From a virus (lineage: Duplodnaviria > Caudoviricetes), in IMG/VR virus record IMGVR_UViG_3300020021_000008, positions 1-63,215 of that record: a stretch of DNA of 63,215 nt. One strand, written 5' to 3'. The position numbers and the translations under genes were made by a program. The notes beneath the pieces are model-generated. The model saw nothing but the letters and a program-made list of their open reading frames with translations. It was not told where the DNA came from and did not search any database. Shown in pieces: positions 23,345-33,031 of this stretch (position 1 is the first letter of the stretch; the number at the start of each line of letters is the position of its first letter).

Positions 23345-23437
23345 GACGAAACGGAGCCCTCTGGGCTCCGTCACGAGGTATTGCCTCGTCTGATGAGTCC
23401 GAGCGGGCCTTCGGCCCGCTCCTATGGAGTAATTGCT

Positions 23438-24796
23438 ATGCGAACATCTACAGCAATAGGCTTGGCCCTAGTGGCGTTCGCATACGCCATTCCGCCCAAT
23501 GCCCTTGCGCAGACTGCCAGCCCCACCACCATCAACGCCTGCACCACCGCCCCCAGTGGTGTTAAGGCCTGCGTCACCGGAACCCTCACCATCACCGTGA
23601 CCCCTGCTGCAGTGAGCCCTCCTCCTCCACCTCCCCCACCTCCTCCACCACCGCCCCCACCGCCACCATCGACCAGCTACGTCTGCCTCCGCAACTGGTA
23701 CGTCAGTCCCGGCGGAGGCGGCGCAGGCACCAGCGCCAGTCCGTGGCCCAGCATTTCTGCCGCCGACACCAGCGGAAAGCTCGCCGCCGGCGATTGCATC
23801 AATGTGGCCAGCGGCACCTACAGCAGCGGCCCGACAACACTGTCGCATGGTGGCAACGCCAATGCCGTCAGCGGCTACGTCGTCTATCGGAGCGCTACGA
23901 AGGGCGCCGCTCACCTCGTCGCCACTGGCAGCATGCAGAACTGGATCCAGGTAAACGCCCCCTACGTAGTGTTCGACGGGTTCGACCTCAACGGTGGCAA
24001 CAGCGGGCGAAGCAGTTCCCCTGTGACTGCTGGCGCATGCCTCACCGGCCAAAGCCATCATTTCCAGGCCCTCAACAACACCGCTCACGACTGCGGCGGG
24101 GCCGGCATCGGAGCCCTCTACCAGGATTGGTACTGGTTTGTTGGCAACGTGGTGCATGACTGCGCCAAGTTCTCTGGCTACCAGGAGTCCGGGATCAGCA
24201 TCTACGAACCAGCCAAGGTCACGTTTACCGCAACAGCACTTGACACCAGTGCCACCTACCACATCCAGGTCACCGGGAACACCACCTACTCCAACGCCGA
24301 GACCTACCTCCCAGGAACCGGCCACACGGATGGCAACGGAATTATCCTCGATGATTTCCTAGACGCTCAGGGCAACAATCCCAACGTCCCAGCCGGTACG
24401 GTCTACCCCTACAAGAGCCTGGTTAGCGGCAACACCAGCTACAACAACGGTGGGAGGGGGATACATAGTTTCTCCAGCACCGGGATCACCATAACCGCCA
24501 ATACAGTATACAACAACGTGCTCGACACCTCACTCCTGGGCCAAGAGCGCGGAGGCCTCTCCGTGGTCAACAGCACCAACACCACCATTACTGCCAACAA
24601 AGCCGCAGCACCAACGAGTTCCACGGGCCTCCTCCAGTACGGCACCGCCGCTATGGACAAGCGTTCCAGTGGCTCCACCTGGAGCGGCAACGCCACCTTC
24701 GACCCTCGCAACGGCCAACGCAGCATGAACACCGACAACTCAGCACTTTCCAGCTCATTTCCCGGCAACAACCCACTCGGTGGTCCGTTGCCATAG
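23438..24796 (+). CDS. Secreted right-handed parallel beta-helix (pectin-lyase-fold) protein, paralog of the tailspike C-terminal domain
   Basis: Signal peptide ending NALA-Q, poly-Pro linker, HDCGGAGI, HTDGNGIILDDF, NNGGRGIH; ends FPGNNPLGGPLP like 61348. Confidence 0.85.
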   Translation: MRTSTAIGLALVAFAYAIPPNALAQTASPTTINACTTAPSGVKACVTGTLTITVTPAAVSPPPPPPPPPPPPPPPPPSTSYVCLRNWYVSPGGGGAGTSASPWPSISAADTSGKLAAGDCINVASGTYSSGPTTLSHGGNANAVSGYVVYRSATKGAAHLVATGSMQNWIQVNAPYVVFDGFDLNGGNSGRSSSPVTAGACLTGQSHHFQALNNTAHDCGGAGIGALYQDWYWFVGNVVHDCAKFSGYQESGISIYEPAKVTFTATALDTSATYHIQVTGNTTYSNAETYLPGTGHTDGNGIILDDFLDAQGNNPNVPAGTVYPYKSLVSGNTSYNNGGRGIHSFSSTGITITANTVYNNVLDTSLLGQERGGLSVVNSTNTTITANKAAAPTSSTGLLQYGTAAMDKRSSGSTWSGNATFDPRNGQRSMNTDNSALSSSFPGNNPLGGPLP

Positions 24797-24835
24797 GCGT
24801 GCAAGCGCGCCTACCCTTCACCTGGGAGACTAGCC

Positions 24836-25021
24836 GTGATTGATCTAGCAGACCTTTTCGTCGGGTACGTTATCATCTGCGCGATAATCTATGGCGTGTA
24901 TCGCGTACTCGTAGCGGTCCCGCGCCTCCAGCGGCATAAACCAACTCTCCTGTTGGTGCTCCGCACCAGCGTCATTCTCACGGGCATCCTGTTTCTCATC
25001 AGTGCCATAATCCCCGAGTAA
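24836..25021 (+). CDS. Small membrane protein
   Basis: Two hydrophobic helices; GGGAG RBS. Confidence 0.55.
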   Translation: MIDLADLFVGYVIICAIIYGVYRVLVAVPRLQRHKPTLLLVLRTSVILTGILFLISAIIPE

Positions 25022-25037
25022 GCGCGGAGGCATTCTC

Positions 25038-25286
25038 ATGGACCCTAATCCTCCGACGGAGTTCGAAATCGAAGTATGGAAGCAGAAAATTGCCCGCCTC
25101 ACTCGCGAGGAGTGTGCTCGACTATACCGCTTCGCCCCGACTGGCCATCCGGTATTCAACTCCGAGCTTCCGCTCTACGCCTTGTTCACCGAGCGCTATT
25201 CGGCGCTCGGCGGACTGGACGCAGAACTTTCCCACAAGATCGGATGGAGCGAGGGTCCTCAGGGCATTCCAACCGTGGAGCTGTAA
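25038..25286 (+). CDS. Hypothetical protein
   Basis: GGAGG RBS; RLYRFAPTGHPVF..GG..LSHKIGW. Confidence 0.65.
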   Translation: MDPNPPTEFEIEVWKQKIARLTREECARLYRFAPTGHPVFNSELPLYALFTERYSALGGLDAELSHKIGWSEGPQGIPTVEL

Positions 25287-26236
25287 CCAACAATTTCGAC
25301 CTAGCCCGACTACTGTTGGCACTGGATGTAGTCGCCACCCATACCCAAACTCTGTTGCACCTTCCGAGAAGCACTGCAAGTGCAGTGCTTCTCCGTGGCG
25401 ACCTCGCAGTCTACGGATTTTTCATCATCTCGGGGTTTCTGATCTTTCGGAGTGCCCGCCGGAGCGACCTAAAGTCGTATGCACTGAAGCGTCTCCGACG
25501 AGTGTTACCGGCCTATGCGGCCGTAGGAGTGGTCTGTGTGCTGGTCGGTTCACTCATCACCACAGCACCAGTTACGGTCTACTGGATCGACGCTACAAAG
25601 TACCTTCTAGCTCATCTCGCATTCGCCACCTTCGCCCACCCAGGCCTCCTTGGTGTGTTTACCTCGAACGAATTCCACTACGTGAACGGAGTCCTCTGGA
25701 CCCTCAAGATCGAAGTCGGGTTCTACGCCCTGGTGCCGCTACTACTACGAGTTCGGGTTCCATTCAGCGTCACCGCCCCCGTTATTTACGCCGGAGCAAT
25801 CTTGTGGTTTACATTCCTATCCACAACGCACTACACGCTGGCCACCCAGTTGCCCGGTCAACTCTCCTACTTTATGGCAGGAGCGCTCATCGAGCGGTAC
25901 GAGCGAGCCTTCCGCCGCAGCTATGGCGGAGTACTTTGCGTGGCCCTAGCCATCATAGCGTCACAATGGTATCCACTGTTCCCGGCCGCTCTCGCGGTGT
26001 TGGTATTGGGCTTCTGCATAGTATTGCCGCCCCTGGCTCACGCCTCACGCTTCGGAGACTTTTCATACGGAACTTACATCTGGCACTTCCCGACTCTCCA
26101 GCTCATTGCAACGCAACACTGGCCCGCTACTACCAGCACAGCCGTCGCACTTATCGCCATAGGTGTTGCGACAGTGTTCTCTTGGCACGTTATCGAAGAG
26201 CCCTGGTTACGGGGCTCCCCTCGAACCCAGTCCTAA
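25244..26236 (+). CDS. Acyltransferase-3 (OafA-like) membrane O-acyltransferase
   Basis: NNFDLARL, AVYGFFIISGFLI, KRLRRVLPAY, NGVLWTLKIEVGFY, GDFSYGTYIWHFP, SWHVIEEP; start uncertain. Confidence 0.9.
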   Translation: MERGSSGHSNRGAVTNNFDLARLLLALDVVATHTQTLLHLPRSTASAVLLRGDLAVYGFFIISGFLIFRSARRSDLKSYALKRLRRVLPAYAAVGVVCVLVGSLITTAPVTVYWIDATKYLLAHLAFATFAHPGLLGVFTSNEFHYVNGVLWTLKIEVGFYALVPLLLRVRVPFSVTAPVIYAGAILWFTFLSTTHYTLATQLPGQLSYFMAGALIERYERAFRRSYGGVLCVALAIIASQWYPLFPAALAVLVLGFCIVLPPLAHASRFGDFSYGTYIWHFPTLQLIATQHWPATTSTAVALIAIGVATVFSWHVIEEPWLRGSPRTQS

Positions 26237-26718: not shown

Positions 26719-27011
26719 CCGACGCACCCGACGGCCCAACTATGCTTGCAGTCATTCGCGCTCTGGATATTCTCGAGGATGCCGCTGATGGCGAGTCCAT
26801 TCGCTTCCTCAATCTCACTCTTATGGTCGTAGTGAACGTGCTGAACAAGATCGGTGTGGAGGAGCGTATGCCAGAGTTGGTCGATGCTTTCAGCGACAAG
26901 CTGCGAAAGAGCATAGCGCTGGTTGCCCAGGCCAAAGCAACAGGCGACATGAGCGACTACGAACGGAGAGTGGAGCGCGATCATGGAGAGGAGCGCGATC
27001 ATGGAGAATAG
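26715..27011 (+). CDS. Small helical hypothetical protein
   Basis: ATGA overlap. Confidence 0.6.
   Translation: MTDAPDGPTMLAVIRALDILEDAADGESIRFLNLTLMVVVNVLNKIGVEERMPELVDAFSDKLRKSIALVAQAKATGDMSDYERRVERDHGEERDHGE
26972..27007. repeat. 18-bp tandem duplication of an RBS plus start codon
   Basis: GGAGCGCGATCATGGAGA twice. Confidence 0.85.
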
Positions 27012-27276
27012 CATAAGTCGTCTCAAAGTCCTCCAGATCACCGCCGAGCTTATGGCCATCCATGACTCAGCCGAGGCCCTTATAATTCTCGAGGGAGTTG
27101 CCGTCGGAGTGCTTTTTCTGTGCGCAAAGTCGGGCCATCACGACGAGGTGGCGAAGCTGTTTTGCGAGGACGTGCTGAAGCAGATGAAGAGTTTCGAACG
27201 CTTCCACCGAGCCGCTGTGGAAGCCCGCAAGGCAGGTCCCACCGCTCCCACTCCGCCAGAGGATCCCCTAGCATGA
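27001..27276 (+). CDS. Small helical hypothetical protein
   Basis: Start at 26983 or 27001 (duplicated RBS). Confidence 0.6.
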   Translation: MENSISRLKVLQITAELMAIHDSAEALIILEGVAVGVLFLCAKSGHHDEVAKLFCEDVLKQMKSFERFHRAAVEARKAGPTAPTPPEDPLA

Positions 27277-27530
27277 TTACCGACGATCAAGGCCAAGCAA
27301 TCCTCGACCAGATAGTCGAGATCTCCAGCTCTCCACTGGAGGCCATGGAGTTGTGTGCCTCCATGCCAGCCACCTTTATCTACCACCACATCCCAGTATC
27401 TTCCACCGAGAACTTTCTCGTGGAGTACCTGGCCTCTATCCGCAGGTGCATCGAGGAGCACCAGCGTCTACACAACGCCCCAGACGGAACAGTCGACACT
27501 CCCGATACCGAGGCCAAGGAGCCCCTGTGA
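27273..27530 (+). CDS. Small helical protein, paralog of 36160-36387
   Basis: TDDQGQAILDQI versus TAEQGQALVDQI. Confidence 0.6.
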   Translation: MITDDQGQAILDQIVEISSSPLEAMELCASMPATFIYHHIPVSSTENFLVEYLASIRRCIEEHQRLHNAPDGTVDTPDTEAKEPL

Positions 27531-27958
27531 TGACCGAGATCCACCTAGTCGCCACCCTCGTTGGAATGCACTTCCGCCCACCAGCCAAGGCCGTGCTCGC
27601 GCACCTCCCCGCCGAAGCCCAAGTCGATCTAATCCCGGAGCCGGACAATCCCTACGACGAGTTCGCGGTCAAGGTGTTAGTCGATCCCGATGCAGTCCCT
27701 GAGGACGAGTACGAGGCGCTGAGAGAGGATCTCGCCGCAAGCGGCTTCGACCTAGAGGAGCTACTCGGTGGCCCCTTCCTCCAGCTTGGTTACGTCGGCT
27801 CCAAACCAGGCAAAGCCGGACCAGTCTTTGGTGTCACCTACGCCCCGGAGTTGCAACCTCAGCTGCTCTCCGCCGAGGACTACAAAGCCACTCTCGGGTT
27901 CGACGTAAGCGGCGATCCTCTAGTCCACATTACAATTATCACCGAGGAGGCAACCTGA
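27530..27958 (+). CDS. HIRAN-domain protein
   Basis: LVGMHFR..VDLIPEPDNPYDEFAVKV..LGYV; TGATG overlaps at both ends. Confidence 0.75.
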   Translation: MTEIHLVATLVGMHFRPPAKAVLAHLPAEAQVDLIPEPDNPYDEFAVKVLVDPDAVPEDEYEALREDLAASGFDLEELLGGPFLQLGYVGSKPGKAGPVFGVTYAPELQPQLLSAEDYKATLGFDVSGDPLVHITIITEEAT

Positions 27959-28824
27959 TGCCTACCAATCCCAACGACCTCAGACCTGATCTGGATCCAG
28001 TCGCGAGGCTGACTCGCGACATTCGCAACGCGGCAAGGACTCTCTCCACCGCCGAGGCGAGGTTCCTCGTCGATAGTTACTACCAAATGCAGCGGGATCG
28101 CATCCGTGCTGCTCACCAAGAGCGAACCCTCTCCGAAGGTGCCGAGCCCCACGACACCATGATGTGGCTGATGGGCCAGCGAGTCACCCTGGAGCAGCAG
28201 GTCGCCAGGGCACTGGACGCCTACAGCGCCAGCCATCCAGTAGGCGACTGGGCACGGAGCATATGCGGCATCGGCCCAGTGATCGCCGCCGGTCTCCTTG
28301 CTCACATCGATATCACCAAAGCCCCCAGCGTCGGTCATATCTGGCGCTTCGCCGGGCTGGACCCAACCGTGAAGTGGACCAAGGGCAACAAGCGCCCTTG
28401 GAACGGCGCGCTCAAGAGGCTCTGCTGGCTCATCGGCGAGTCGTTCGTCAAAGTGTCCAGCAATGAGAACGACATTTACGGCCAGATCTACAAGGCCCGC
28501 AAGGAACTCGAGATCCAGCGCAACGAGGCCGGTCGGTTCGCTGACCAGGCCAAAGCCGCGCTCGCCGAGAAGAAGTTCGGTGCCGACACCGAAGCTCGGA
28601 AGTGGTACGAGCTGGGAAAGTTACCGCCGGCAAGGATCCACCTGAGGTCCGAGCGTTACGCAGTTAAATTGTTCCTATCCCACCTCCACCACGTGATGTA
28701 CGAGAACCACTTTCACAAACCTCCTGAGAAACCCTACATCTTCAACGAGGGAGCAGCTATCGCCACGGGGACCGGACCGCATACCCATTACCTCGCCCCA
28801 CCGAACTGGCCCCGGAGCACCTAG
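27958..28824 (+). CDS. tasA: IS110-related Nop-domain RNA-guided DNA-binding protein (TasA-like, no nuclease domain)
   Basis: Coiled-coil N-terminus, GIGPVIAAGLLAHID..IWRFAGLDP..WNGALKRLCWLIGESFVK..YKARK..RYAVKLFLSHL; no DEDD RuvC and no IS110 SG motif; adjacent dual-spacer array. Confidence 0.8.
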   Translation: MPTNPNDLRPDLDPVARLTRDIRNAARTLSTAEARFLVDSYYQMQRDRIRAAHQERTLSEGAEPHDTMMWLMGQRVTLEQQVARALDAYSASHPVGDWARSICGIGPVIAAGLLAHIDITKAPSVGHIWRFAGLDPTVKWTKGNKRPWNGALKRLCWLIGESFVKVSSNENDIYGQIYKARKELEIQRNEAGRFADQAKAALAEKKFGADTEARKWYELGKLPPARIHLRSERYAVKLFLSHLHHVMYENHFHKPPEKPYIFNEGAAIATGTGPHTHYLAPPNWPRST

Positions 28825-28826
28825 AG

Positions 28827-28994
28827 GTGCTCCGGCAGTGGCGACACCCAATACTGAAACTAGCATTCCTGTCGGTGTTGGCAGGAGGAGTGGGTTACGT
28901 ACTTGGTGTAGCGTTTCCGCTGCCTTGGAATATAATTGCGTCAACTGTCAGTGGTGTATGTTTCGGGAGGTTCTACATACGCTGGAGCCGATAA
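28827..28994 (+). CDS. 55-aa two-TM membrane protein between the Tas gene and the array (below the ORF-track cutoff)
   Basis: GTG 28827: MLRQWRHPILKLAFLSVLAGGVGYVLGVAFPLPWNIIASTVSGVCFGRFYIRWSR*. Confidence 0.5.
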   Translation: MLRQWRHPILKLAFLSVLAGGVGYVLGVAFPLPWNIIASTVSGVCFGRFYIRWSR

Positions 28995-31106
28995 TGTCGA
29001 GAGTACCGTTATAACGGAGTAACTGAGACCACCGTAGCCAGGAGGCGCGAGTGTGCTAATAGTGGAGAGCAGGCCAAGGCCACTTGAGCCATCATCCACG
29101 AGTGTACCAATGAATGGGAGCGAGCCGCAAGCTATGAGTGTACCGGTATTCTGGAGCGAGCTGGAAAACGTGAGTGTACCGTTCTGGACGAGCCGGGGCC
29201 AGACGAAACTACCGAGTGTACCGATTAAGGTGATCGAGCCCAGTCGAATGAGTGTACCAAACTAGGCGAGCCAGCAGAGGTGAGTGTGCCATCAACGCTG
29301 AGCAAGCCGAGAAGTTGGAGTGTGCCGAAAGCTCTGTGCGAGCCGCGTTGTAGGAGTGTACCGCGTCCCACGAGCCCAGACGTGATATCTGAGCGTACCG
29401 ATTAAGGTGATCGAGCCACCACCTTTGAGTGTACCATGTTTGTAGAGCCCGAAGTTGTGAGAGTACCATCTATGGAGAGCATCTAACCGTGTAGTGAGAG
29501 CGTACCGTGCAAGAAGAGCGAGCCGGGAGTCTCGAGTGTGCCATGTTTGTAGAGCGAGCCCGAGGCTTTGCCTCAGCCAGCGACGATGAGAGTACCGCCG
29601 ACATGAAGCAGAGCACTTCGTGCTTCAGCCGTCATACTCGAGTGTTCCGGAGTATCTGAGCAAGCCAGCCCTCGTGAGTGTACCGTCGAACCTGAGCGAG
29701 CCAGGGGACATGAGTGTTCTGGAAGTGTGGAGCGGCAAGTCGAAGCGAGCCGGTAAGTGTGAGTGTACCGTGTGGAGCGAGCCGAGACGTGTGAGTGTGC
29801 CGAAAACTCTGAGCCACGCGCAGCCGTCGTTCGAGAGTGTGCCACAGCTATTGAGCCGGAGCGCGTGAGAGTACCATGTATCGCGAGCAGCCGAGAACTG
29901 CTAGTGTGCCGTGCAGTTCGAGCGGGCCACAGAACCTGAGCGTACCGTGCTATTGGAGCAGGGGCAAAGCCCACTCAGCCCCAACGGCTGAGAGTACCGT
30001 GGCAAACGAGCCGAGAGATGTGAGTGTGCTAGGGCATTTGAGCCAAGATACAGGAGTGTACCGCCCGCAGCGAGCCGAGGCCGCGAAGCGGCCTCTCTAG
30101 CCAATGATATCGAGTGTACCGTGAATAGGGAGCCCCAGAGCCGAGGCCATCGAGAGTACCAAGTTTCGCGAGCCAAAAGCACAGTGTGTACCGTACTGGA
30201 CGAGCCCCGACAGTTGAGCGTGCCGAGGTATCTGATCGAGCCGGATAGCAGGAGTGTACCGAGTTTGGAGAGCCAGGGTACGGGAGTGTACCGCCTGACA
30301 GGAGCTCCAGCGTGAGGCCAGCCGGATTGTCGGAGTGTGCCGCTTCCCACGAGCAAGCCCGGGTTGTTGAGTGTGCCATTTGGGCTGAGCCAAGCCAACA
30401 CCCGTGAGTGTACCAATGTCCTTGAGCGAGCCGACATGTTTGAGTGTACCGGAGTGTCAGAGACCACCAGCCGTGTCCTATAAGTGTGCCACAACTGTCG
30501 AGCCGATAGTCTTGAGTGTGCCAACATTACAGAGCAAGCCAACTGGCGCGAGTGTACCAAGCCTCTGGAGCAATAGTTGCTGCCCTAGCCGGAACAGCTG
30601 AGTGTACCGCCTTGCATGAGCAGCCGCCAAGCTTGAGTGTACCGTAATTACGGAGCCAACTGGTGTGAGTGTGCCAATCCTCTGGAGCCAACTCATGCGA
30701 GTGTACCGTACTTGTGGAGCAGCCGTCGGCCGTGTAGTGTACCGAGTGATGTGAGCAGCCATTTGATGGGAGTGTACCGTGCTGTTAGAGCAGCGAAGCC
30801 ACCTTTAGCCACAACTACTGAGAGTACCGGAATTCTGGAGCGAGCCAAGTGGAGTGAGTGTACCATGACTGCAGAGCCCCACAGACGAATGTCCCGAGTG
30901 TACCATGATTGCTGAGCCGCAAGGTCCGAGTGTGCCAAGGCAATAGAGCCGAGTCGAGGCCCGAAGGGCCTCTAGCCTGAAATCGTGAGTGTACCAAACC
31001 ATAGGAGCTGGGCTTCACCATCAGCCACAAGGGTAGAGTGTACCAAAGTCATGGAGCGGCGAAGCCGCTCTCAGCCAAAACACCAGAGAGTACCATCGAT
31101 ATGGAT
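28985..31106 (+). ncRNA. TIGR-like tandem dual-spacer guide-RNA array, about 54 units
   Basis: Unit AGCC-N9-GAGTGT(A/G)CC-N9-GAG(C), e.g. gagcgagcc-gcaagctat-gagtgtacc-ggtattctg-gagcgagct; 36-nt basic period; 54 central repeats counted by hand. Confidence 0.88.
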
Positions 31107-32633
31107 CGCGCTGACATTATCCCTACCCCAGAACAATCCGCCATCATCGACGCAGCGATCAATTCTCCGCTGTCCCTCATGATCAGCGCCGATGCCGGTT
31201 GTGCCAAGACCACTGCGCTTGAACTCGCCGCATGGGCCATGCCTCCAGGGCCATCGCTCGCCCTCGCCTTCGGAGTGAAAAACAAAACCGAACTCGAGCG
31301 TCGGTTCCCTCCTCACTTCACGGTGCTGACGCTGAATGGCCTCGGCCACCGGGCTTGGGGCCGAGCGTCCCGCCAGACCCTAATAGTCGATGAGCGTAAA
31401 GTCGGAAGGTTGTTAACTGCTGTGGCTAAGGACCAGGGCTATGCACTGTCGAAAGAGCAGTGGAGTGACGTCCGCTCTATCGTGTCGCACGCTCAGCACT
31501 TGGGCCTGGTCCCCAGTGACTATCCTCACAAGGGTCTCATGGTGGACACGCCGGAGAGCTGGGTGGACATTGCCGATGCGCTGCTCGTCACCGACGCCGA
31601 GCCCCTCCTGCCATTGGCCAGATCCGTGCTCTGTGCTGCCATTGCCGAGTCGTTCACGGGCCTGATCTCCTACGACGACCAGATCTACATGAGTGCTCTG
31701 TTCAACGGGAATTTTCCTCGCTTCCCGAGGGTGTTCGTGGACGAGGCCCAGGACCTCTCCCCCATCAACCACCTCCAGATTAAGCGAACCCTCCTCGACC
31801 GTCTCATTGTCGCCGGAGATGACAAGCAGGGGATATACGCCTGGAGAGGTGCCGACAGTAGTTCCATGCGCTCCATGCGAGCACTCCGCAAGGATTGGCT
31901 AGACCTGAGGCTCTCGGTGACCTTCCGCTGCCCGCGAGTCGTAGTGGCTCGCCAGCAGTCCCACGCCCCAGGTTTCACGGCAGCACCAGCCAACGCCGAC
32001 GGCGAGATCTGGGACTGGAGCTTCAACCACGACCGTTGGACCTGGGCCACCATTGGCGCCGAGCCCAAGCAGTCCGTAGCCATTCTCTGCCGCAACAACG
32101 CTCCCCTCATGGCGATTGCCATGAAGCTCATTCGCCAGGGTGTCGGGGCGGTGATGCTTGGGAGAGAGATCGGAAAGGGCCTAGTCTCGCTGGCCAAAAA
32201 GATCATCCCTCTCGATAGCATTCCCGCCTCCGAGTGCCGAAGGTTGATCCTGCAGTGGGCCTCGGACCAGATCGAAGTTGCTGCCGCCAACGACAAGCAC
32301 GAGAAAATCGCCGGTTTCGAGGATCGCCGAGACAGCCTCCTCGCTGTGCTGGACTCCGGTCCGCCTAACTCCGGTGCCATGCGCAAGGCGCTCGACGAAT
32401 TGTTCTCCCGTGCCTCTGGCCGAGTGACCCTCTCCACCATCCACAAGTTTAAGGGCCTCGAAAGTGATATTGTCGTCCACCTCGATCCGTGGCGAGTCCC
32501 CTCGAAGTGGGCGCGCTTAGCGTTGTCTGCCGGCGACGACAGACCCATGATGCAGGAGTTGAACCTTCGCTACGTAGTGGAGACTCGTACTCGCCATACT
32601 CTAATACTTGCCAACTTGGAGGATTTCCAATGA
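31101..32633 (+). CDS. UvrD/Rep-like SF1 helicase
   Basis: PTPEQ, ADAGCAKTT (variant Walker A), VFVDEAQD, GDDKQGIYAWRGA, TFRCP, STIHKFKGLE, YVVETR. Confidence 0.9.
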   Translation: MDRADIIPTPEQSAIIDAAINSPLSLMISADAGCAKTTALELAAWAMPPGPSLALAFGVKNKTELERRFPPHFTVLTLNGLGHRAWGRASRQTLIVDERKVGRLLTAVAKDQGYALSKEQWSDVRSIVSHAQHLGLVPSDYPHKGLMVDTPESWVDIADALLVTDAEPLLPLARSVLCAAIAESFTGLISYDDQIYMSALFNGNFPRFPRVFVDEAQDLSPINHLQIKRTLLDRLIVAGDDKQGIYAWRGADSSSMRSMRALRKDWLDLRLSVTFRCPRVVVARQQSHAPGFTAAPANADGEIWDWSFNHDRWTWATIGAEPKQSVAILCRNNAPLMAIAMKLIRQGVGAVMLGREIGKGLVSLAKKIIPLDSIPASECRRLILQWASDQIEVAAANDKHEKIAGFEDRRDSLLAVLDSGPPNSGAMRKALDELFSRASGRVTLSTIHKFKGLESDIVVHLDPWRVPSKWARLALSAGDDRPMMQELNLRYVVETRTRHTLILANLEDFQ

Positions 32634-33031
32634 CCAGCAAGTCCGGAGTGTCTCGGCGGACTACTCGGCCCTCCGAGCCCATCAACCACAACCCCTCTCC
32701 AGCCGTCGAGTACGTCGCAATCCACCCCTCAGGGCGCGAGGACCGCTTTATCGCCCGACTCCCGATCCGCCCCACCTACAACGAAATTGCCAAGGTGGTC
32801 GCCCCGCACTTTCCCAATGCCAAGTTCGAGCACGTAAGTGTCCTCTGGGATCACAAGCCTCTTGATATGTTCGTGGATGAGAGCAGTCAGATTAAAGGCC
32901 TTCCAAAGAACATTCGCGCTACGAAAATCTATCGCAACAACTGGATGCAAACTCACCCAGCAGCAGACCCCGAAGCGTTGCCCGACATTGCTGGACTGGC
33001 GCTATTGTTCTTCCGTCGCATCTGGTACTGA
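32630..33031 (+). CDS. Hypothetical protein (DUF3846-like)
   Basis: GGAGG RBS; DMFVDE...KGLPKNIRAT..IAG. Confidence 0.65.
   Translation: MTSKSGVSRRTTRPSEPINHNPSPAVEYVAIHPSGREDRFIARLPIRPTYNEIAKVVAPHFPNAKFEHVSVLWDHKPLDMFVDESSQIKGLPKNIRATKIYRNNWMQTHPAADPEALPDIAGLALLFFRRIWY

Follow-up and report, generated by a model that had tools for sequence, protein, structure and literature searches.

A probable dual-repeat TIGR-Tas locus with elastic edge repeats in a virus genome from soil

Positions 28985 to 31112 of IMG/VR record IMGVR_UViG_3300020021_000008, a complete 63,215-bp virus record from soil that is called the window in its whole length, hold a 2.1-kb non-coding array of 54 units on the plus strand. 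A fixed 9-nt repeat alternates with a junction of very variable length, and some of the junctions carry hairpins. To which guide system does this array belong, which of the two repeats is processed and what do the variable junctions mean? The locus is almost certainly a TIGR-Tas locus. As a whole, it is very probably a dual-repeat TIGR array with a TasA protein, in which the linker length of the edge repeat has been relaxed. The original prediction was made from the letters of the DNA and was largely right in its interpretation of the array; the TIGR-Tas system itself was not recognised.

The fixed repeat was searched as GAGTGTACC with up to two substitutions in positions 28901-31200. This yielded 55 matches. 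One of them (30887) lies within a spacer, leaving 54 copies between 28999 and 31094. Twenty-four copies are exact and 30 have one or two substitutions; GAG is kept in 50/54 and the final CC in 51/54. The fixed repeat is 9 nt long in all copies, as predicted, with a single 1-nt ambiguity at unit 45/46. Each unit consists of an edge of 5-32 nt, a spacer A of 9 nt, the fixed repeat, named loop repeat below, and a spacer B of 9 nt. The first edge is GAGCC (28985-28989). The last loop repeat (31086-31094) and the last spacer B (31095-31103) are followed by a terminal degenerate edge, GATCGCGCT (31104-31112), which equals the junction variant GATCGAGCC at 7/9 positions. The array starts and ends on the junction side, in agreement with the original prediction.

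Nine nucleotides on each side of the loop repeat were set as spacers, so that any variation in length must appear in the junctions. The junction remainders validate this parse, because they still align and share starts and ends. Among the 53 internal junctions, 48 start with GAG (46 with GAGC) and 47 end with GCC (46 with AGCC). Junction lengths are 5 nt (13 junctions, all GAGCC), 8 nt (three), 9 nt (16), 10 nt (two), 12-15 nt (six) and 22-32 nt (13). Of the edges, 22/53 are within the 8-12 nt that are usual for the repeats of dual-repeat TIGR arrays, 13 have 5 nt and 18 have 13-32 nt. The predicted elasticity of this junction is real and spans 5-32 nt. The 16 junctions of 9 nt are GAGCGAGCC-like, and 37/53 have other lengths. 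Units vary from 32 to 59 nt in consequence. No loop among the 54 deviates in length, and of the 108 spacers at most one does, by a 1-nt slip at unit 45/46; all other length changes belong to the edges. Dual-repeat TIGR arrays have both repeats conserved within a locus. Inside the window locus, the loop repeat is conserved and the edge sequence is not, apart from the edge handles GAG(C) and (A)GCC, which are present in 46-48 of the 53 junctions.

The regularity of the array is far beyond chance. Exact copies of GAGTGTACC occur 24 times inside the array, once elsewhere on the plus strand and never on the minus strand. A pattern expressing the unit grammar had 39 matches, all within the array, and none on the minus strand. 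Tandem Repeats Finder reported a single 86-nt row out of the 2.1 kb because the period of the array is irregular. Several of the longer edges have a complete GAGCC at the start and a second AGCC handle at the end, for example GAGCC-AAGCC and GAGCC-CCA-GAGCC. This suggests duplicated handles or collapsed units.

What defines a TIGR array is the alternation of two short repeats, separated by spacers A and B of 9 nt, in the neighbourhood of a gene with a Nop domain, and the published criterion for the edge repeat is that it begins and ends the array (PMC12045711, Faure et al. 2025). Processing occurs in the edge repeat in the characterised systems (PMC12045711; PMC13421893). GAGCGAGCC begins and ends the arrays of many relatives of the window locus. 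The array of the Salicola phage CGphi29 starts with AAGCGAGCC and ends with the same repeat type and a terminator. A literal search for the edge sequence in the main text of PMC12045711 gave no match; the edge and loop of the Salicola phage were assigned because that repeat begins and ends its array. Since the junction in the window is homologous to GAGCGAGCC and the array starts and ends on the junction type, the junction corresponds to the edge repeat and GAGTGTACC to the loop repeat. The original prediction had placed the processing site in the elastic junction and had drawn the unit around it. Both are supported by the edge homology and by a catalytic residue pair kept in the Tas protein, and the edge is probably the processing site, a conclusion that rests on homology.

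The boxes were assigned by analogy with PMC12045711. Box D would be the AG of GAG, and box C would be CC followed by a purine. The original prediction had noticed that a purine follows GTACC and had counted it as the first base of the spacer. A purine is directly 3' of the loop repeat in 54/54 units and directly 3' of the junction in 47/54, and CC with a purine precedes the rest of spacer B in 51/54. Box C is CCA in most relatives. The purine is therefore best read, by this analogy, as the third base of box C and not as part of the spacer. With these boxes, the separation between box D and box C is 4 nt in every loop versus 0-27 nt in the edges. Three edges (29190-29204, 29372-29381 and 30874-30886) end with AGAC in place of AGCC, each before a spacer A with an initial G. 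Related arrays from other metagenomes have ACA as box C of the loop repeat (GATAGAAACA). The AGAC ending may be an accepted box C variant.

The gene upstream of the array (27958..28824, plus strand) encodes a tasA-type protein of 288 aa (P0001) with a coiled coil and a Nop domain and without an HNH or RuvC domain. It ends 160 nt upstream of the array. Sequence matches in the PDB were TasR (9mty_A, E 7.1e-12) and TasH (21kl_A, E 2.5e-9), both over residues 78-189. An AlphaFold2 model based on 33 homologues had a mean predicted local distance difference test (pLDDT) score of 83. With this model, Foldseek placed TasR or TasH chains on all ranks from 1 to 10 (E 4e-7 to 2e-6), followed by the bridge-RNA recombinases IS621 and ISCro4 (E 6e-3 to 1e-2). 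The Pfam scan found only the IS110-type family Transposase_20 (E 2.6e-5), and the PHROGs scan found phrog_4285 (E 3.5e-50), which is labelled 'transposase'. These labels are the usual mis-annotations of the Nop-type fold. Residues 1-77, where TasH and TasR carry nuclease domains, form helices only in the model, and no nuclease family was detected in the Pfam and PHROGs scans. The helical N-terminal part together with the lack of an HNH or RuvC domain identifies the protein as the TasA subtype.

Tyr260 and His275 of this protein align with Y289 and H296 of the TasH of the Salicola phage (SpTasH), which were named as catalytic for the cutting of the precursor of the guide RNA, pre-tigRNA (PMC13421893). 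In dual-repeat Tas proteins, this pair is located on the C-terminal loop of the Nop domain. The histidine has an equivalent in 33/33 homologues and the tyrosine in 29/33. Between the two residues, in the segment 261-274 (28738-28779), the window protein has an 8-residue insertion in comparison to 23/33 homologues. The segment has a pLDDT below 50 in the model. The clade of P0006, P0008 and P0009 has an unrelated 9-residue insertion at the same position. The insertion was considered as a cause of the elastic edges and rejected: the loci L092 (6-residue insertion), L089 and L090 (9-residue insertions) have canonical 9-nt edges.

How unusual are the elastic edges? The window protein has at least 5,134 homologues with E <= 0.001 among 8,000 candidates scored. 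Loci for comparison were 18 viral loci, one metagenome-assembled genome (MAG) and 55 metagenome loci retrieved with the window protein, and 31 more retrieved with P0006. Arrays were compared by period histograms and explicit parses. In the readable arrays, a period of 36 nt mostly dominates, and the edges are GAGCGAGCC of 9 nt. Where phages share the loop type of the window, they have at most a single GAGCC per ~15-25 edges. Some edge variants occur in L004/L028 and L021, for example GAGCAGCC and GAGCGTCAGCC. Broad elasticity was found in only one other genome among the comparison loci, the sister phage G001 (also present as L026), with a Tas protein of 84% identity. There, 30 units are joined by edges of 5-28 nt that bear the same handles. 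The sister phage L092, with a Tas identity of 82%, has the same loop repeat and gene order, and its ~45 units have canonical edges: 82/90 gaps between successive repeats are 9 nt. As judged from these sequences, elastic edges are rare and derived, a recent, lineage-specific relaxation. Such elastic arrays were not described in the accessible texts of the TIGR-Tas articles and preprints, supplements and survey catalogue aside. The novelty lies in the degree of edge elasticity in an array with a dual-repeat, Tyr/His-type Tas protein.

The edge core GCGAGCC is common to the TIGR arrays of very distant phages and MAGs, including the Salicola phage, the Microcystis phage Mvi-JY20 and viral, metagenome and MAG loci of other collections (L001, L002, L007-L021 and others), and their loops differ. 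Conservation across loci is thus higher for the edge than for the loop, whereas inside the window it is the reverse. Edge-like repeats are also found in place of the loop repeat, at L013 1573-1609, L017 6897-6933, L019 6999-7035, L021 4362-4398 and in many places of L092. Such an order of edge, 9 nt, edge-like repeat, 9 nt and edge indicates that the two kinds of repeat can interconvert.

The following sequence of events is proposed. The plus strand is most likely transcribed with, or just after, the upstream tasA-type gene. The 160-nt leader that separates the first edge from the tas gene (28825..28984, plus strand) has a TATAAT hexamer at 28931-28936 without a matching -35 element. The distance from the tas stop codon to the array is no more than ~40 nt in both sister phages, so that co-transcription with tas is equally possible. 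Each unit would then yield one tigRNA, which would consist of (A)GCC at the 5' end, the 9 nt of spacer A, GAGUGUACC, the 9 nt of spacer B and GAG(C) at the 3' end. In the solved TasR and TasH complexes, one box D/box C pair lies in the loop repeat and the second is formed from the RNA ends (PMC12045711; preprint 10.64898/2026.08.11.744272). By analogy, a TasA dimer would hold the RNA by two such pairs, the first within the continuous loop repeat and the second between the two RNA ends, each of which would come from a different edge repeat. Spacers A and B may pair with opposite strands of an 18-bp DNA site. A TasA without a nuclease domain likely acts by DNA binding or transcriptional repression and not by cleavage. 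DNA binding and repression of transcription have been reported for TasA; the protein tested was a different TasA from a stem-loop system (preprint 10.64898/2026.09.09.750476).

This scheme would account for the different behaviour of the two repeats. Because the loop linker remains part of the mature RNA, where it has a fixed distance to span, its boxes would always be 4 nt apart. Cutting removes the edge linker from the precursor, and its length would then be irrelevant. Relatives show a constraint to GAGCGAGCC as the usual edge, which would have been relaxed in the window phage and one sister. GAGCC is the product of losing one GAGC from (GAGC)2C, and the opposite product, GAGCGAGCGAGCC, is present in a relative. 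The 5-nt edges would have arisen by this loss and the long forms by insertions, duplicated handles and palindromes, with selection keeping GAG(C), (A)GCC and the 9-9-9 geometry.

Several observations weigh against the reading as a working array with relaxed edges. If the Tyr/His site needs a canonical edge, as its strong conservation in relatives suggests, the 37 edges with lengths other than 9 nt might be cut badly or not at all. Published TIGR arrays usually end with a terminator, and the window array runs into a helicase gene; on the plus strand, consensus scans detected no promoter in positions 27000-33000 and no terminator. Transcription, its strand, the RNA ends and RNA abundance at this locus are all deduced. 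Targets were searched with all 54 guides, in both orders of the half-sites and with gaps of 0-2. The own genome had no site with up to two mismatches outside the array. At three mismatches, it had 7 and 11 sites, comparable to the 3-8 obtained with shuffled A/B pairings. Against G001, one site with two mismatches was found, which is the chance level; the reverse search and G001 against itself yielded none. In 0.80 Mb of related loci, no site had one mismatch or fewer, and the counts at two mismatches were like those of the controls. Finally, junction folding energies were compared with those of mononucleotide shuffles of the same junction: 6/19 junctions of 12 nt or longer fold better than 95% of their shuffles, with about one expected. 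This excess of well-folding long edges leaves room for a function of the hairpins.

The original prediction had stated that the junction often carries hairpins. This was overstated: a folding energy of -5 kcal/mol or better was obtained for 7/53 junctions, those of units 2, 15, 16, 25, 28, 51 and 53, and all seven belong to the 13 junctions of 22 nt or more. The four hairpins that it had named are present at 30077-30095, 30956-30972, 31054-31070 and 29562-29574, with -14.9, -12.4, -11.6 and -5.8 kcal/mol. The first belongs to the strongest hairpin junction, the 31-nt edge of unit 28 (30072..30102), which is composed of GAGCC, an 8-bp hairpin with a GAA loop and TCTAGCC. Its -16.3 kcal/mol are reached by 1% of the shuffles. 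The edge of unit 51 (30946..30977, 32 nt, -13.8 kcal/mol) and that of unit 53 (31054..31076, 23 nt, -12.8 kcal/mol) each have a 7-bp hairpin with a GAA loop. The latter takes in the GAGC on the box D side itself, and its energy was reached by 0/300 shuffles. The edge of unit 15 (29552..29578, 27 nt) comprises a complete GAGCGAGCC, a C, a 5-bp hairpin and AGCC; the whole edge has -8.1 kcal/mol, the hairpin alone -5.8 kcal/mol, and the fold is no better than that of shuffles (0.29). Weaker hairpins are located in the edges of unit 2 (29067..29090, 24 nt, -8.4 kcal/mol), unit 16 (29606-29630, -7.1 kcal/mol) and unit 25 (29956-29980, -8.5 kcal/mol), and each of these edges beats ~95% of its shuffles. 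All these edges were read on the plus strand. The hairpins are local to the linker between units, and each of the strong ones is confined to a single junction.

Are these hairpins and variable edges functional? They might represent an intermediate between dual-repeat and stem-loop arrays and serve as signals for processing, insulation or stability, possibly with a cut by a host RNase in place of the Tyr/His pair of TasA, and the junction type would set the guide abundance. Besides the excess of well-folding long edges, a common form argues for this: in five of the seven hairpins (units 15, 25, 28, 51 and 53), the stem is closed at its base by GAG on the 5' side and CTC on the 3' side, and AGCC comes after another 0-3 nt; in three of these five a GAA loop is closed by C-G. 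The same form recurs at a non-homologous unit of G001, as GAGCG-TTT-CGCTC followed by TCCAGCC. Palindromes at the edge position together with conserved loops have been named as a possible intermediate stage (PMC12045711). The distribution of the hairpins points the other way. Only 7/53 junctions have one, whereas 13 are bare GAGCC. In G001, 1/9 long edges beats its shuffles. The only clearly orthologous junction, window unit 16 and G001 unit 21, has a hairpin in the window and none in G001. In published stem-loop tigRNAs, the two ends of one unit pair with each other to form the stem (preprint 10.64898/2026.08.11.744272), unlike the linker-local hairpins of the window. Pairing of this kind, closing a unit, gave no signal in the only five window units with long edges on both sides, where duplex energies were within ~1.3 standard deviations of mismatched controls. 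Stem-loop Tas proteins lack the Tyr/His loop (preprint 10.64898/2026.09.09.750476), whereas the window protein has the pair. Functional hairpins and edges of this kind are thus unlikely.

A wider version of this idea is a similarly long shot. Guide maturation could be uncoupled from the edge sequence, with the cut measured from the box handles by TasA or a recruited host RNase and linkers of 0-27 nt accepted. The junction type, be it a 5-nt shared handle, a canonical edge or a hairpin, could then set which of two neighbouring guides matures and how abundant each of the 54 guides is, and the array would be a snapshot of the transition from dual-repeat to stem-loop arrays in a Tas clade that bears the Tyr/His pair. 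With the relaxed edge linker as the preferred reading, the hairpins are most likely tolerated insertions in a linker that is discarded. The balance is somewhat in favour of hairpins without any specific function. They may have a secondary, modulating effect on cutting or RNA stability.

Alternatively, the array may be decaying. Its edges would have drifted, the guides would no longer be processed or used, and the remaining regularity would be historical. An edge sequence that is near-invariant in relatives is lost in 37/53 junctions, several long edges resemble collapsed or duplicated handles, and neither targets in the own genome, the sister and 0.80 Mb of relatives nor, by consensus scan, a terminator were found. 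However, the tas gene is intact in both phages with elastic edges and the catalytic pair is kept. The length change is confined to the edge linker, and loops, spacers and handles are kept in 54 and 30 units, unlike a uniform decay. Two units are common to both phages and the rest differ, which indicates that the arrays are turning over and not frozen. Decay is therefore improbable.

Reading the array in the reversed register, with GAGTGTACC as the cleaved edge and the variable junction as an internal loop that has one spacer of the guide on either side, is more doubtful still. An uncut junction would also carry box D, linker and box C in cis, like the loop repeat, and a stem that separates the spacers is present in some stem-loop tigRNAs (CsTasR; preprint 10.64898/2026.09.09.750476). 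Yet the array begins with the junction type, without a GAGTGTACC-like element before 28985, and its end is junction-like as well. The junction is homologous to the GAGCGAGCC edge that begins and ends the arrays of relatives, the Salicola phage included, and a junction of 5 nt leaves no linker to loop back between the boxes. There is practically no probability that the region holds something other than guides, such as a CRISPR-like array, a repeat that codes for protein or a structured RNA of a known family: several ORFs (open reading frames) of 60-219 aa overlap it on both strands, but most of the periods of 32-59 nt are not divisible by 3, no Pfam family was assigned to the two longest antisense ORFs, the two kinds of 9-nt repeats are unlike CRISPR, and in the window Rfam gave 0 matches and no tRNA was detected.

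Guide content was compared within the array and between phages. Only two guides are common to the window and G001. Window unit 16 (29579-29605) and G001 unit 21 differ in 1/18 spacer bases, and window unit 29 (30103-30129) has spacer A alone in common with G001 unit 12. The remaining spacers all differ despite Tas proteins of 84% identity; thus, the array content turns over quickly.

Similar spacers also occur within the array. In seven pairs of units, spacer B is identical or has one mismatch (4/48, 5/31, 6/11, 9/21, 10/35, 12/15 and 41/44), compared with ~0.15 such pairs expected by chance; spacer A has no pair that close. Such pairs were noted at 29172-29450 and across the whole array. Units 6 and 11 are both followed by the rare edge GATCGAGCC and preceded by a rare edge with CAGAC at its end, and their A spacers are unrelated. 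The pairs 9/21, 10/35 and 41/44 are alike in both halves, with 3-4 differences in 18 positions. This suggests a duplication of units with divergence, or guides to related half-sites. Comparison with three DNA runs yielded the probable source contigs and, from two other soil samples, fragments of 151 nt. A 151-nt contig from another soil sample (run X4) corresponds to window positions 30533-30683 with six differing positions. They include the loop repeat, where A>G at 30641 yields the common A/G loop variant, and the B spacers at 30611 and 30651. These differences point to strain-level point mutation of spacers.

The array is followed by a gene for a UvrD-like helicase (31101..32633, plus strand; Pfam UvrD-helicase E 1.2e-11 and UvrD_C; phrog_1967, DNA helicase, E 2.7e-63). 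Its ATG (31101) falls within the last spacer B, so that the beginning of the coding sequence overlaps with the terminal degenerate edge. Six nucleotides upstream of this ATG is the loop repeat GAGAGTACC, an arrangement that is the same in G001. Just upstream of tasA, an ORF at 27530-27958 (plus strand) likely starts at Met60 of a 201-aa frame. It has the same position in G001 and L092, with 60-62% identity. No Pfam family was assigned to it, and its PHROG match, to a family of unknown function, is weak. A stretch containing NPYD is presumably reminiscent of HIRAN domains. The gene order of this ORF, tasA, array and UvrD-like helicase is common to the three phages. Scans with Pfam and PHROGs showed Tas, helicase and unknown proteins as neighbours of the array and no cas genes next to it. 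Further upstream on the plus strand (23381-26236), a tailspike-like protein with a right-handed beta-helix and an acyltransferase (Acyl_transf_3) are encoded, a pair that suggests recognition and modification of surface polysaccharides. A near-identical phage record was not found by database comparison.

TIGR-Tas systems are new (2025) and are under development as compact DNA-targeting tools that are independent of a protospacer adjacent motif. For them, the window array is a natural mutational series at the edge: 13 junctions have 5 nt, 16 are canonical and 24 have other lengths, including the seven with hairpins. A sister phage with canonical edges is available as its matched counterpart. 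Should most units mature, GAG and CC would make up the minimal edge, and arrays may be designed in a more relaxed way, with shorter units or insulating hairpins. Should most units fail to mature, the array would be an example of the decay of arrays of this type. In annotation, such arrays will be missed or split by finders built on a 36-nt period.

The closest known systems are the dual-repeat TIGR-Tas loci, represented by the TasH locus of the Salicola phage CGphi29 and by TasA-type loci. The window locus is like them in a Nop-domain Tas gene, two alternating short repeats, 9-nt spacers and box D/C handles. In common with the Salicola phage, it is phage-borne, has an edge of the same family (GAGCGAGCC in the window, AAGCGAGCC in the Salicola phage) and keeps the Tyr/His pair. 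It differs in a variable edge (only 16/53 are 9 nt), units of 32-59 nt instead of 36 nt, seven hairpin junctions, the lack of a detected terminator and an array that abuts a helicase gene. Its 54 units exceed the 'most often 5 to 15' given in PMC12045711; the arrays of the sisters have ~45-50. Stem-loop TIGR systems (PlTasA, CsTasR and BlTasA; PMC12045711 and the 2026 preprints) are similar in a variable, sometimes palindromic edge position, a conserved inner repeat and a nuclease-less effector. In contrast, the window has hairpins local to the linker, mostly junctions without a palindrome and a Tas protein with the Tyr/His loop; the Tas proteins of stem-loop clades are described without this processing loop (preprint 10.64898/2026.09.09.750476).

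More distant are the box C/D small (nucleolar) ribonucleoproteins, s(no)RNPs, with Nop5, Nop56 or Nop58. They belong to the same fold family and use a two-guide RNA held by box C/D-like motifs (PMC12045711). Unlike them, the window locus has no K-turn/L7Ae module and no methyltransferase, its guides are arrayed and the target of characterised TIGR systems is DNA. IS110-family recombinases with a bridge RNA (IS621 and ISCro4) are the next-best structural matches of the window protein and have the Pfam family Transposase_20 in common with it. The window Tas lacks their RuvC-like DEDD domain, and a many-guide array replaces the single bipartite bridge RNA. CRISPR arrays resemble the window array in interspaced repeats with variable spacers and a precursor cut into guides. 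They have identical repeats of ~25-36 nt and cas genes, whereas the window combines two kinds of 9-nt repeats and 9-nt dual spacers with an effector of another family and no adjacent cas genes.

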